A DNA stretch of 64,000 bases from Escherichia phage ManiMatter_Bas94 (PQ850617.1); one strand, 5' to 3'. Counted from the stretch's first letter, positions 29,422 to 39,434 are shown. Translations and numbers: made by a program. Notes: generated by a model from the letters alone, not told the origin.

Positions 29422-30772
29422 AGATAAACGTTTTAGCGTTGTCACGAGTAGGAAGACCAGCAAGTTTCTGGTTGTGGGAGTGGATATCACCTTCAAGAAG
29501 GATATCACGATACATAATAGCAGAAGCTAAACCACGTTCTGCCAGAGCTTTCTTAGCTGGATTATTCTCTTCGATTGCTTCAGCAAGCATATCCCTACAT
29601 TCTTTAATGAGGTAGTGAGCGAGCATACGAAGTTCAAGTCCAGAACCATCATACCCTAAGAATACTTCTTTACCAGCGGGTATGTAATATTTGTAAGCAC
29701 CTACAGGCTTATCTTTCTTCCCCGGCTTACCTTTCTCGTAAATTACGTTAGTACCTTTTCGTATATAACAACCATCAGGAACAACGTTAGTAATAACGAA
29801 AGGACGAGAGTGATCACTGTCTGAATTATAGTCAGACTCAAACAAACTGCGACACTCATGACCAAACAAACCACGGGAGGGAATATTAACCACGATACGA
29901 TGTTTGAATCGAAAAGTTGGCGTAGCGCAGCTGTTAGCTTCTGCCGAAAGTTTACCATCTTCGCGTTCCTTTGCTATGAGTCCACTGATAAGACCTAGCC
30001 TGTGAGCCGCTACAACGCGCCTCTTAAGCAAACTTCCAACACTCCCTAGCTCGCCCCCTAACCCTTCTTCAAGAGTCTCCTCGAGGTTTGTAGGAGCTGT
30101 AGGCCACTTGTTTGAGGTAGCTAGTGCTATCTTAATCTCATCAAACGTGATAGGTCTACGTCGGTTAGGGTTTAAACCTAAACCAAACACATAAGCCTTC
30201 ATATAGTTCTTAGTCTTAAACCTAAAATGCTTCTCTAAGAACCTCCTAATATCTGCGTCAACCATCTCGGCTGTCTGCTTCTGTTTAGCATTACCTCGAA
30301 TCCAAGCTGAATACCACGCTTGGTATGTTCCATACTTTCGTATATCTTTCTTGATTTCAAAAGTATTCCAAGGTTTCTTTGATACGTTAAACTCTGGAGG
30401 AAGAAAACCCTCATCCATAAGGGCTTCTTTAACTCGTGCATCTTTCGATGGGTCAAAGTCCACGTATTCAACACAGGTGAATGCTCCACCAATGTCTTCT
30501 CTCTTAAGGCCAACTCTATCACAATAGGCTTGAGGCCACTTCTGTAAAGCTCCAGACTTCTTAAATGGCTTCATATAAGTAGAGCCATCTAATCTCATCT
30601 TAGGTAAGAGAGGGATCAGTTCTTTGTCGATATTAACAATAATCTCTTTAAGGAGGTGAACATACCACCGAGCATTTCTTCGGTTGAAACTCACTCCGTG
30701 CTTCGCTTGCTTAGAGATTATATCAGCGACAGTCATCTCTGTCAAAAATGGGAGAGCGTCCGGGTTGCTCAC
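29422..30772 (-). CDS. DNA polymerase (family A, T7 gp5-like), exon 1
   Basis: LGYDGSGLELRMLAH (motif A) and PTRDNAKTFI (start of motif B); no 3'-5' exo domain in this ORF. Confidence 0.8.
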
Positions 30773-30788
30773 TTTATACTCCTTTAAA

Positions 30789-31211
30789 TTATTGGTAAAG
30801 TAAATCTGTAAATGCTTGGTTGTCTTCTACTACATCTAGCAAGGTTGCTTCGTTACTATAAGACCTAACCGTCCCGTTGACAACTGTCCGAGTAGGAGAG
30901 GGAGGTGGTGTATGGTTAGCTCTAGCTTCGCGAGGTTGCTCTCGTACTAAATGAGCCATAGCCATTTGGTTAGCGACTTCTTCTCTTTCTCGAATAGCTC
31001 TCTGAATATAAGCTAGCTTCATGCCCCAAGCTTCTTCAAATTCTTGAGGATGTTTGTCACTGATAACCACATATTGACGTTCAGGGATACCAGAGCGAAT
31101 CTCTGATAAGAGTTCACAGAACAAATCCAGTTCGTGTTCAGTGAGATTCATTTCGATATCATCCCACTTGAGAACTAGGAAACGGTTTTGATATCTAGTC
31201 GGTAATGGCAT
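30789..31211 (-). CDS. Hypothetical protein
   Basis: 140-aa ORF. Confidence 0.4.
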   Translation of the reverse strand: MPLPTRYQNRFLVLKWDDIEMNLTEHELDLFCELLSEIRSGIPERQYVVISDKHPQEFEEAWGMKLAYIQRAIREREEVANQMAMAHLVREQPREARANHTPPPSPTRTVVNGTVRSYSNEATLLDVVEDNQAFTDLLYQ

Positions 31212-31214
31212 AGC

Positions 31215-31469
31215 TTAACCTTTAGGGAATGGGATGAGGTTTTCTACTGCAACACGGAATTCTTTCTCTACATCTTTATTCTTATAAGAAATGAATTTCC
31301 CATCAGCACCACGGAGGATTACGTTAGTGCGAGCTGTTTTTGGGTTATGACTGATTTGGTTTGCAATGAGACTAATGTTGAGTTTAGTGTTGTGGTTATT
31401 GGTGAATTTCCACTTAGCCAGACGATTAGTCATTACATCAATGATAGTTACAGTTTTTACAATAGACAT
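31215..31469 (-). CDS. Hypothetical protein
   Basis: 84-aa ORF. Confidence 0.4.
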   Translation of the reverse strand: MSIVKTVTIIDVMTNRLAKWKFTNNHNTKLNISLIANQISHNPKTARTNVILRGADGKFISYKNKDVEKEFRVAVENLIPFPKG

Positions 31470-31500
31470 AGTTATTACCTAAGAAGTTTAGTTTGGTTTA

Positions 31501-36839: not shown

Positions 36840-37040
36840 CTATCTGTCAACCGATTCAGGGACAAACTGCATTACACAGACCTGATTACGAGGAAGGTTT
36901 ATTTCACAAGCAGCTTTTCTATCAGCAACCTTAGATGACGAGTTAGGGCCAATTTGAGCCATCATTAATCCCATAGCGAACATGCCGAGGCTTACACCAA
37001 TTACTAAAGATGCTATAATTTCTTGTTTCATTTTGATCAT
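36840..37040 (-). CDS. Small membrane protein
   Basis: 66 aa, central hydrophobic segment. Confidence 0.35.
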   Translation of the reverse strand: MIKMKQEIIASLVIGVSLGMFAMGLMMAQIGPNSSSKVADRKAACEINLPRNQVCVMQFVPESVDR

Positions 37041-37570
37041 ACCCCTTTAGATGCAACTACACCATTACTGCCGTTATAACGACCCTTCACCGCATAGGAA
37101 TCATCACCAGCGTGAGAGTGCTCAAACATAACCATCTGACCAACACGCATACCAGCACGAACTCGTAAGCTATGATGCTTGGTTACGTTATGGAACTCAA
37201 ATGTCAGCTTACTACTGTTAAACCCTGCGTCTGCCCATCCGGCGTGGAGGTGGTTCAAACCACAACGAGCCATAGATGAACGCAGGACAAACAGGCTTGA
37301 AATGTTATCTGGAAGGTTAAACTCCTCCATAGAGTGAGCCAAGAAGAACTGACCCGGAGTGATAACCAAACCCTCTTCAGGAATTTTTACTTCCTTCCAC
37401 TGAAGATTCTCTTTCGCATCAATATCAACGATGCCATCAGCCTGTTCTTCAACAAGGATAGTATCACCAATACGGATATCCACACTAGCAGCGTTAACAT
37501 ACTTATGCTCCGCATCCAGATAGCCATTGTCAATTACATCATGCAGTTCAATACTTCCTAGTAAACTCAT
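37037..37570 (-). CDS. dcd: dCTP deaminase
   Basis: VDIRIGD, LRSSMARCGL, AGWADAGF and C-terminal GVVASKGV match the Dcd family. Confidence 0.8.
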   Translation of the reverse strand: MSLLGSIELHDVIDNGYLDAEHKYVNAASVDIRIGDTILVEEQADGIVDIDAKENLQWKEVKIPEEGLVITPGQFFLAHSMEEFNLPDNISSLFVLRSSMARCGLNHLHAGWADAGFNSSKLTFEFHNVTKHHSLRVRAGMRVGQMVMFEHSHAGDDSYAVKGRYNGSNGVVASKGV

Positions 37571-37579
37571 TCTTATTCC

Positions 37580-38878
37580 TTAGTTATTTGTTTCTATGTC
37601 AAAAGAGAATCCACGACCCGCTTCATCGGCAAACCGAACTGTATGGGTTTGAGGCTCTAATACTTCAGGGTTGTTAGCAATAAAGCGATCAGCGAGACTA
37701 CGACTGACAGTCTCAGCTAACTCTCCATGAGAAGGGATATCAAGATCACCAGCAGCAAAACCCTGACCAGAGAACTGACGTGCGCTAACAGTTAAACCAT
37801 TTGGTCGACCATTAGAACGTCTAGACAACCACTGCTCAAATGAATCACTAGTAACACCAAGAGCCTCTTCAAAAGATGTTCTACGAGTAGGGCTTACTCT
37901 TCGTGACTCTTGTGCTCGACGCATTGCAGGGGCTACAAACACCCCTTCAATTGCATTGTGTCGGTTAGGTTCGTCTTCTCGACCAAGCAGATCACCGCCT
38001 GTGTTAGTCGTTAAGTTTGTTAACCCTTCAGACCAATACGCACGAATCTGGCTAGAGCCATAAATGCTTGACATTAACTGAATCTCTTCATAAGGTATAT
38101 CAAAGAATCGACTCATATCTCGGTTAACACAATACTGAGCACTTGTTGTATCCTCAATAAGAGCAACCTGACCCCGTTCGTTGACCAGATGACTAACCGG
38201 CTGAGGTGTGGGAAGGTGTCGAGTTTGGGCCATGTATTGATATGCAGCTGCTGGAGAGGAAAATCTCAACACTTGCGAGTTAGGCCACTTCTTGTGAACA
38301 TACCTGATTTCACGACTAGAAACAACCACTGGACAAGGGGCGGTCATAGCCAAGTATCCATGAGGGGTCATGAATAAGTTATCAAGAGTCATCGCACCAC
38401 GGCACATCATAGGAAAATTATCCAATACCTCTTCAATAGAAGTAGGATAATTAAACATGAATTGGATACGAACACCATTCCACTGAAACTCAATAATATC
38501 AGTGAATGTTAATTGAGAACCCCCAGCATATGGCTCATCTGTAGCTTCAACAAGAAGAGATGAATACTCAATATCTTGTGATTCAAGCCATTCCTTCACA
38601 TTGCTTTCAATCTCCCGTCCAAGCATTTGCCACTGCTCGGCTGGGATAAAGGTATTTCGAGTTCTTGGTGTTTGTCCTCTGACAATAAAGATATCAATGT
38701 CATGTGGAGCTATGTTATTAAGAACAGCATCACGAATAGCTCCACCAGTAATGATAGGGCAAATACCATCTGGAATCAAGTTGTTGTTAATCAACTGTTC
38801 AATGAAGTGACGACCAACAGTGATATCAGGTTGTTGAGCAACCTTATCTTCAATTCGGTTAATCGGGATAACAATCAT
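37580..38878 (-). CDS. Nucleotidyltransferase with CCA-adding/poly(A) polymerase-type head, Ser/Arg-rich C-terminus
   Basis: PIITGGAIRDAVLNNIAPHDIDIFIV (GGxxRD...DxD); likely start at Met 38878 just after exo stop. Confidence 0.5.
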   Translation of the reverse strand: MIVIPINRIEDKVAQQPDITVGRHFIEQLINNNLIPDGICPIITGGAIRDAVLNNIAPHDIDIFIVRGQTPRTRNTFIPAEQWQMLGREIESNVKEWLESQDIEYSSLLVEATDEPYAGGSQLTFTDIIEFQWNGVRIQFMFNYPTSIEEVLDNFPMMCRGAMTLDNLFMTPHGYLAMTAPCPVVVSSREIRYVHKKWPNSQVLRFSSPAAAYQYMAQTRHLPTPQPVSHLVNERGQVALIEDTTSAQYCVNRDMSRFFDIPYEEIQLMSSIYGSSQIRAYWSEGLTNLTTNTGGDLLGREDEPNRHNAIEGVFVAPAMRRAQESRRVSPTRRTSFEEALGVTSDSFEQWLSRRSNGRPNGLTVSARQFSGQGFAAGDLDIPSHGELAETVSRSLADRFIANNPEVLEPQTHTVRFADEAGRGFSFDIETNN

Positions 38879-38879
38879 T

Positions 38880-39434
38880 TTACATTTTCCAATATAATGA
38901 AGGTGGGTCATAAGGATCAAATCCTGTGTGTTCACACAAGTATTTATAAACCTTAACAGTTAAGTTAACGTCCTGTTCACAGTAAGTAAACATATCTTCA
39001 GTGAAAGCATCCCATGCTTCCTCCTGCTCACCGTAATCTCCTTTAAGTTCCCCTAAGAACTCACCCCATTGCTTCAAACCGTGACCTCTTGGGCCATGTC
39101 TAGGGTCGCCTTTCGGATACTCAGGACTGTCACCAATACGGTCAGGTTTAAGATATCGACTAAGACACAGAGTGTCGAAGACGTTAAAACGATATTTAAT
39201 CAGATTGGGATATATTTTCTTCAGAGCACAAAGGTCGAAGTCAATAATGTTATGGCCCACGAGCACATCAGCTTCTGTAAGTTTACGAATCCCATCTTCA
39301 ATTTGGTGAGGCCGGTAGCCCCACCTTTCACCAGTTTCAACATCGAAAATGTAAATACACCATACTTTAGTTATATCATCGTACAGTGCGTTACTTTCGA
39401 TATCAAATGCAAACACTTTCTTTTTCTTTACCAC
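38880..39434 (-). CDS. 3'-5' exonuclease domain of T7-type DNA polymerase, encoded as a separate ORF
   Basis: [11 protein letters not shown] (Exo I), [10 protein letters not shown] (Exo II), [15 protein letters not shown] (Exo III); stop after ...SLYWKM. Confidence 0.75.

Follow-up and report, generated by a model that had tools for sequence, protein, structure and literature searches.

In the 64,000-nucleotide (nt) stretch of Escherichia phage ManiMatter_Bas94 (PQ850617.1) analysed here, referred to below as the window, the exonuclease and polymerase domains of a T7-type family A DNA polymerase lie in two genes on the minus strand: a predicted 3'-5' proofreading exonuclease directly behind a primase/helicase gene and, 8,107 nt away, an exonuclease-less polymerase whose coding sequence (CDS) is broken by a group I intron. 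A 12-kb stretch around this region matches 132 phage records, with Escherichia phage AidaStucki_Bas93 at the top (98.7% identity) and JacquesWildberger_Bas92, LAMP and phiEco32 next (91-98% identity; 91-97% for LAMP and phiEco32); because of these matches, the window is assigned to the phiEco32-like coliphages and, judged by its sequence, is nearly the whole genome of such a podophage (Gordonclarkvirinae). The features that make up the divided polymerase are as follows.

38880..39434, minus strand: predicted 3'-5' proofreading exonuclease, 184 amino acids (aa), homologue of phiEco32 gp74 (PF01612, T7 gp5 alignment, phrog_403 and phrog_38876)
29422..30772, minus strand: DNA polymerase exon 1, residues 1-450 and the first base of codon 451, encoding the thumb, motif A (DGSGLELR) and the N-terminal half of motif B (RDNAKTFI)
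28716..29421, minus strand: group I intron, 706 nt (Rfam RF00028; intron-less alleles; two-piece join in Bas93)
28800..29312, minus strand: homing endonuclease of endonuclease VII/HNH type, 170 aa (PF02945, E 1.2e-23; phrog_307, phrog_2914 and phrog_2633, 'endonuclease VII'; endonuclease VII in Bas93)
28222..28715, minus strand: DNA polymerase exon 2, encoding the remainder of motif B (YAFNYGAG), motif C (HDE) and the C-terminal end of the protein (PF00476, E 5e-14)

A stand-alone 3'-5' exonuclease gene

The exonuclease open reading frame (ORF) starts at a GTG codon that overlaps the stop codon of the primase/helicase gene, with a GGAG Shine-Dalgarno sequence 7 nt upstream. Its product matches Pfam PF01612 (DNA_pol_A_exo1) at 37 bits (curated cut-off 23.6; E 3.8e-9) and T7 gp5 over T7 residues 3-185 (E 1.7e-11); the ORF as a whole is aligned to T7 residues 3-193. 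When the protein is aligned with phiEco32 gp74, the stand-alone exonucleases of Vp_R1 and UFV-P2, and the N-termini of T7 and Berlin gp5, the catalytic residues of Exo I (D11, E13), Exo II (N62, D67) and Exo III (Y151, D155) are invariant in all six proteins, following the patterns DxE, Nx2-3[FY]D and Yx3D, respectively. By these signatures, the ORF is a complete DEDDy (DnaQ-like) 3'-5' exonuclease of the family A polymerase type, in agreement with a first-pass annotation of the window, which had read it as an Exo I/II/III-bearing counterpart of the N-terminus of T7-type polymerases.

Furthermore, both phrog_403 and phrog_38876 ('DNA polymerase exonuclease subunit') match the ORF, and its product is identical to phiEco32 gp74 at 175 of 185 aligned positions. 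The ratio of nonsynonymous to synonymous substitution rates (dN/dS) in comparison with phiEco32 is 0.09. No second exonuclease-like sequence was found in the 64-kb window by tblastn with the window exonuclease, T7 residues 1-200 or full-length T7 gp5.

An exonuclease-less polymerase colinear with T7 gp5

The polymerase gene starts with a GTG codon at 30772, behind an AAGGAG Shine-Dalgarno sequence, and its reading frame breaks off at 29420, halfway through motif B (...RDNAKTFI). When 30772..29422 is joined to 28715..28222, 706 nt are taken out, and the resulting CDS has a restored motif B (RDNAKTFI|YAFNYGAG) and is 1845 nt long, exactly as in the uninterrupted phiEco32 gp53 and Bas92 genes. 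The predicted spliced product, like uninterrupted gp53, comprises 614 aa, and 603 of the 614 residues are identical between the two. It carries DGSGLELR (motif A), RDNAKTFIYAFNYG (motif B) and MHDE (motif C), in line with the family A consensus sequences DxSxxExR, RxxAKxxxxxxxYG and HDE. The first-pass description of the polymerase body as lacking an exonuclease domain holds; its treatment as one ORF does not, the motif B intron having been overlooked. More generally, a raw ORF reading of this region produces a truncated polymerase unless the intron is recognised.

The spliced polymerase matches T7 gp5 with E 3e-33 and aligns with it from about T7 residue 200 onward, exon 2 covering T7 residues 528-704. 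Full-length matches to the 614-aa protein are confined to split-type phages, the T7-like polymerases aligning from residue ~270 onward. In a MAFFT alignment of the concatenated exonuclease and polymerase against T7 gp5, the two proteins meet at T7 residue ~196-205, and no sequence is lost or repeated there. The pieces are likewise colinear on the phrog_17 profile, where the exonuclease occupies positions 668-826, polymerase exon 1 positions 836-1069 and exon 2 positions 1071-1233, confirming the earlier statement that the polymerase from 30772 begins where the exonuclease domain ends. The two domains that share one chain in T7 gp5 and Klenow are thus found here in two genes, each with its own start and stop. 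Since dN/dS against phiEco32 is 0.035 for the polymerase and 0.09 for the exonuclease, both genes are under purifying selection; they are separate and intact.

Within the polymerase gene, codons 10-19 contain a perfect sigma-70 consensus (TTGACA, 17 nt, TATAAT, with TG before the -10 element) at 30745-30717 on the minus strand. It is identical in phiEco32 and Bas93, and its -35 hexamer is degenerate in KBNP1711. It could serve as an internal promoter, or it could simply result from coding constraint.

A probable mobile group I intron in polymerase motif B

The Rfam model RF00028 is matched end to end (positions 1-253) at 28768-29436 on the minus strand, with 43.3 bits and E 2e-8, and Rfam returned no other intron between 27500 and 40000. 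The last base of the 5' exon is U, the exon sequence UAUCU is able to pair with GGAUA in the intron (P1, with a U-G pair), and the intron ends in G (...AUGAG). In the Bas93 annotation, the same polymerase gene is a two-piece join with endonuclease VII inside. A Berlin-type splice site 5 nt upstream, considered in view of the Rfam P1 alignment, was rejected, as the 3' flank cannot restore the frame from there.

The Bas92 allele is intron-less, and its 1845 nt agree with the window exons at all but 12 positions (99.3% identity); on this comparison of alleles, the intron is therefore a recent gain or loss. No co-conversion tract was seen near the intron relative to intron-less Bas92: there is a single silent difference at +2 and no cluster. 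The endonuclease VII/HNH-type gene combines its profile matches with a location in a mobile intron that some near-identical alleles carry and others lack, as is characteristic of a homing endonuclease. Among 50,697 phage records, the full-length window intron occurs in Bas93 only, and partial relatives are located in T7-like Yersinia phages, Salmonella Vi06 and Aeromonas MQM1, again within polymerase genes. In LUZ24, an analogous polymerase group I intron splices in vivo.

Different group I introns have entered motif B of T7-type polymerases at no fewer than three sites, all within 17 nt of one another. Besides the window site, the intron of Yersinia phage Berlin lies 5 nt upstream (Berlin ~2134/2815), and the kuravirus relative KBNP1711 carries a different intron with a different ORF 12 nt downstream (~1666/2446).

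Conservation of the split and variability of the gap

The division between exonuclease and polymerase, which the first-pass annotation had implied to be new, is already known from the 2008 phiEco32 annotation, from papers of 2012 and 2023 that treat it as a trait of the whole group, and from PHROGs family names. RefSeq describes phiEco32 gp74 as 'DNA polymerase exonuclease subunit; contains 3'-5' exonuclease domain' and gp53 as 'DNA polymerase; lacks 5'-3' and 3'-5' exonuclease domains'. The same exonuclease/polymerase split was reported for the LUZ24 group, with reference to the 2008 phiEco32 paper and a note on the LUZ24 polymerase intron (PMC3517423). According to a 2023 paper, the 5'-3' and 3'-5' exonuclease subunits of the polymerase are encoded by separate genes in the group, an arrangement for which 7-11, Privateer, Vp_R1 and BUCT695 are also listed (PMC9965538). 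The BASEL paper does not comment on the Bas93 polymerase.

The split is conserved in relatives, one of the checks that the first-pass annotation had proposed: it is seen in Bas93, Bas92, phiEco32 and other lineages, and every related genome examined has it. The gene order primase/helicase, exonuclease, nucleotide-metabolism block and polymerase is common to Bas93, Bas92 and phiEco32, and the exonuclease and the polymerase are found at 80% identity or more in 95 and 98 phage records, respectively. The gap between the two genes differs strongly among lineages.

phiEco32-like phages: split, gap of 7.2-8.1 kb
cyanophage S-SBP1: exonuclease and polymerase ORFs overlap, gap of 0
UFV-P2 (LUZ24-like): split, gap of 2.1 kb
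Pantoea phage TacPo2: split, gap of 2.4 kb
Vibrio phage Vp_R1: split, gap of ~19 kb when the linear record is treated as a circle
Vibrio phage CHOED: fused exonuclease-polymerase of 747 aa, no gap

In the other split lineages, the break lies at the same linker between exonuclease and polymerase. Moreover, UFV-P2 shares the flanking synteny, namely gamma-glutamyl cyclotransferase (GGACT), primase/helicase, exonuclease, gap, polymerase and 5'-3' exonuclease. The first-pass annotation had regarded the intervening genes as an inserted cassette; because the same break point is accompanied by gaps of 0 to ~19 kb and the gene content varies among close relatives, comparison of these sequences indicates that they are a variable region rather than a single inserted cassette.

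As annotated, the polymerase of Vp_R1 (MG603697) has 503 aa and is without the first ~60 residues of its relatives. Its start is 84 nt away from the end of the record, which appears to have been linearised inside the polymerase gene or just upstream of it.

A probable two-subunit polymerase and its alternatives

The explanation that we consider probable for the locus as a whole is a conserved gene fission in a T7-type family A polymerase, the products of which re-associate as a two-subunit enzyme. The fission would have cut the linker between the exonuclease and polymerase domains without loss or duplication. The exonuclease would then be made from the gene directly behind the primase/helicase, and the 614-aa exonuclease-less polymerase from the gene 8.1 kb downstream, after its mRNA has removed the 706-nt group I intron by self-splicing. 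The two proteins may re-associate non-covalently into an enzyme resembling T7 gp5, in which the exonuclease subunit would remove misincorporated 3' ends handed over by the polymerase, as epsilon does for alpha in Escherichia coli Pol III. The designation of the small protein as an exonuclease subunit of the polymerase is the existing reading by curators (phiEco32 RefSeq, PHROGs).

By analogy with T7 gp5 and host thioredoxin, the phage-encoded thioredoxin might serve as a processivity factor:

34451..34726, minus strand: phage thioredoxin, 91 aa (PF00085, E 3.5e-13)

A thioredoxin-processivity hypothesis has been put forward for the related phage Privateer (PMC7881722), and proteomics of phage SU10 identified thioredoxin and the 69-kDa polymerase both among the middle gene products. 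For the window, the analogy hints only weakly at such a partnership, because the stretch of the polymerase that corresponds to the thioredoxin-binding loop of T7 can be aligned in part only.

That partial alignment is also one of several points that weigh against a two-subunit enzyme as pictured above. The score of the intron (43.3 bits) is below the RF00028 gathering score of 50, and the searchable literature, which did not include the original 2008 phiEco32 paper, contains no experiment on exonuclease-polymerase binding or on proofreading by the exonuclease for the polymerase. Additionally, because two hairpins resembling intrinsic terminators lie between the two genes on the coding strand, at 34965-34938 (after the Dps-like gene) and 31534-31511 (after a 105-aa ORF), the exonuclease and the polymerase may be on different transcripts and produced in different amounts.

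These hairpins and the 8-kb distance also favour the main rival reading, an autonomous exonuclease that would form no stable complex with the polymerase, proofreading in trans on released mismatched ends or acting in recombination, end trimming or host DNA degradation, with the polymerase itself exonuclease-less. The growth of the gap to ~19 kb in Vp_R1 implies that tight co-expression is not enforced, and no published binding data for the two proteins were found. Against such independence, the cut lies exactly at the domain linker and both halves are colinear with T7 gp5; the two proteins diverge in step, the exonuclease being 50% identical to that of Vp_R1 and 37% to that of UFV-P2, and the polymerase 39-40% identical to those of LUZ24-like phages; and both genes co-occur in every split-lineage genome where both were sought. 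We regard an autonomous exonuclease as unlikely, while giving it appreciable weight.

A rejoining of the two parts into one polypeptide or mRNA by trans-splicing, a giant intron or a split intein is brought to mind by a paper that calls UFV-P2 ORF32 and ORF43 two exons of the polymerase (PMC3890496). In the window, however, the exonuclease has its own stop codon and the polymerase its own Shine-Dalgarno sequence and GTG start, ~19 independent protein genes separate them, the Rfam scan returned just the intron within the polymerase gene, and the C-terminus of the exonuclease and the N-terminus of the polymerase form short linkers too small for intein halves. Proteomics of phage SU10 likewise detected the polymerase at 69.1 kDa, the exonuclease-less size. 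On the separate start and stop codons, the intervening genes, the single intron hit and the SU10 polymerase size, rejoining was rejected as extremely improbable. We likewise found nothing in favour of an assembly artefact or a decaying exonuclease remnant, the two outcomes named by the first-pass annotation as fatal to its claim, and consider their probability negligible. The same arrangement, without a contiguous exonuclease-polymerase gene, recurs in independently sequenced genomes, through the 95 exonuclease and 98 polymerase records and through explicit maps in Bas93, Bas92, phiEco32 and KBNP1711, and a remnant is refuted by the dN/dS of 0.09, the invariant catalytic residues and the lack of a second exonuclease domain in the 64 kb.

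Returning to the fission and two-subunit reading, a bolder extension, to which we give a rather low probability, would be a single ancient fission common to the phiEco32-like, 7-11-like, Grimontviridae, LUZ24-like and TacPo2-like phages and possibly to P60-type cyanopodoviruses. The gap might then have become a later growth zone for nucleotide-metabolism genes and homing endonucleases (0, 2, 8 and ~19 kb), and the hairpins may allow the exonuclease:polymerase ratio, and hence replication fidelity, to be set independently of the polymerase level.

Genes between the exonuclease and the polymerase

The 8,107-nt gap holds ~19 intact ORFs and one ORF with an in-frame stop, in place of the 14 genes counted previously. 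The functions named earlier (nucleotidyltransferase, dCTP deaminase, HNH endonuclease, Dps-like protein, thioredoxin, ThyX and PhoH) were all upheld by Pfam or PHROGs. Besides the thioredoxin gene given above, the gap comprises the following.

37580..38878, minus strand: nucleotidyltransferase, 432 aa, first gene of the intervening block (phrog_12715, E 3e-240; no Pfam match)
30789..37570, minus strand: remaining intervening block (ORF list and translations, Pfam, and Bas93, Bas92 and phiEco32 annotation), consisting of dCTP deaminase, three small ORFs, a 108-aa ORF, a free-standing HNH_3 endonuclease, a Dps/ferritin-like protein and a small ORF; then thioredoxin, ThyX, a stand-alone Nlig-Ia domain, two small ORFs, PhoH and a small ORF; and finally a small ORF with a nonsense codon, followed by ORFs of 105, 84 and 140 aa

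The mechanically called nucleotidyltransferase ORF (37580-38935, minus strand) reaches a GTG at 38935 and would overlap the exonuclease gene by 56 nt. An ATG at 38878, one base past the exonuclease stop, is the likely start. In Bas93 and Bas92, shorter or overlapping versions of this gene are annotated.

The free-standing HNH_3 endonuclease gene (35529-36023, minus strand; PF13392, phrog_59) has the Dps-like gene on one side and the next ORF on the other and is absent at this position in Bas93, Bas92 and phiEco32; Bas93 is without this gene and two further small ORFs of the window gap. The homologue of Bas93_0047 (71 aa), an ORF starting at 32125, contains an in-frame TAA at 32054-32056 (minus strand) where Bas93 encodes Gln, which leaves an ORF of 23 codons; the stop is likely a recent nonsense mutation or a sequencing error. 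A 118-aa protein encoded at 33420-33776 (minus strand) consists only of the Ia domain (NAD+-binding) of NAD-dependent DNA ligase (PF22745, E 2.5e-35) and is without catalytic domains, yet is called 'DNA ligase' in the annotation of relatives.

Genome context

All genes from ~22 kb to 62 kb of the window are carried on the minus strand. Two genes outside the divided polymerase bear on replication.

39428..41218, minus strand: T7 gp4-like DNA primase/helicase (Pfam DnaB_C, 9.9e-11; weak Toprim_2 match below the curated cut-off; primase/helicase in the Bas93 and phiEco32 annotation)
23292..24110, minus strand: candidate 5'-3' exonuclease, FEN-like (weak Pfam 5_3_exonuc_N match, E 6.5e-6, below cut-off)

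The latter product may be a separately encoded 5'-3' exonuclease, and hence a third piece of Pol I-type functions; a 5'-3' exonuclease gene occupies the same relative position in UFV-P2.

Further along, Rfam calls a tRNA at 53598-53676 (minus strand; 33.4 bits, above the gathering score), and the window is without any tRNA according to ARAGORN. In published tables, most phiEco32-like genomes have one tRNA.

Comparison with known systems

The closest known counterpart is the gp74/gp53 pair of phiEco32 (Kuravirus, Gordonclarkvirinae). The genes are orthologous, lie in the same order between the primase/helicase and the downstream genes, have the same neighbours and are separated by ~8 kb in both phages. 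They differ in that gp53 is uninterrupted, whereas the polymerases of the window and of Bas93 carry the 706-nt group I intron in motif B, and in that the window gap holds the extra HNH_3 endonuclease gene.

The LUZ24-like Pseudomonas phages (LUZ24, PaP3, tf and UFV-P2) encode 'DNA polymerase part I' (exonuclease) and 'part II' (polymerase), with the same break point and synteny as the window, and the polymerase gene of LUZ24 also has a group I intron. Their gap (2.1 kb in UFV-P2), however, contains small ORFs and no nucleotide-metabolism genes, and their two proteins are 37-40% identical to those of the window.

T7 gp5 belongs to the same family and has the same domain order, with Exo I-III and motifs A-C in common, including RDNAKTFIY in motif B, and a primase/helicase gene directly upstream. 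Whereas gp5 is one chain of 704 aa, the equivalent sequence in the window is cut at residue ~200 and divided between two genes 8 kb apart. Moreover, recognisable similarity to the first ~270 residues of the window polymerase is found among split-type phages only.

Group I introns with endonuclease VII/HNH genes also occur in the polymerase genes of T7-like phages such as Yersinia phage Berlin, and show partial similarity to the window intron and its ORF, 67-80% over 28-41% of the intron. Both are inserted in polymerase motif B, the Berlin intron 5 nt further upstream.

Finally, the E. coli Pol III core offers a functional analogy: alpha (the polymerase) and epsilon (DnaQ, a DEDD-type proofreading exonuclease) are two distinct chains acting together in a complex. 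Alpha belongs to family C and is unrelated to the family A polymerases, and the association demonstrated for Pol III would have its counterpart in the pair encoded in the window.

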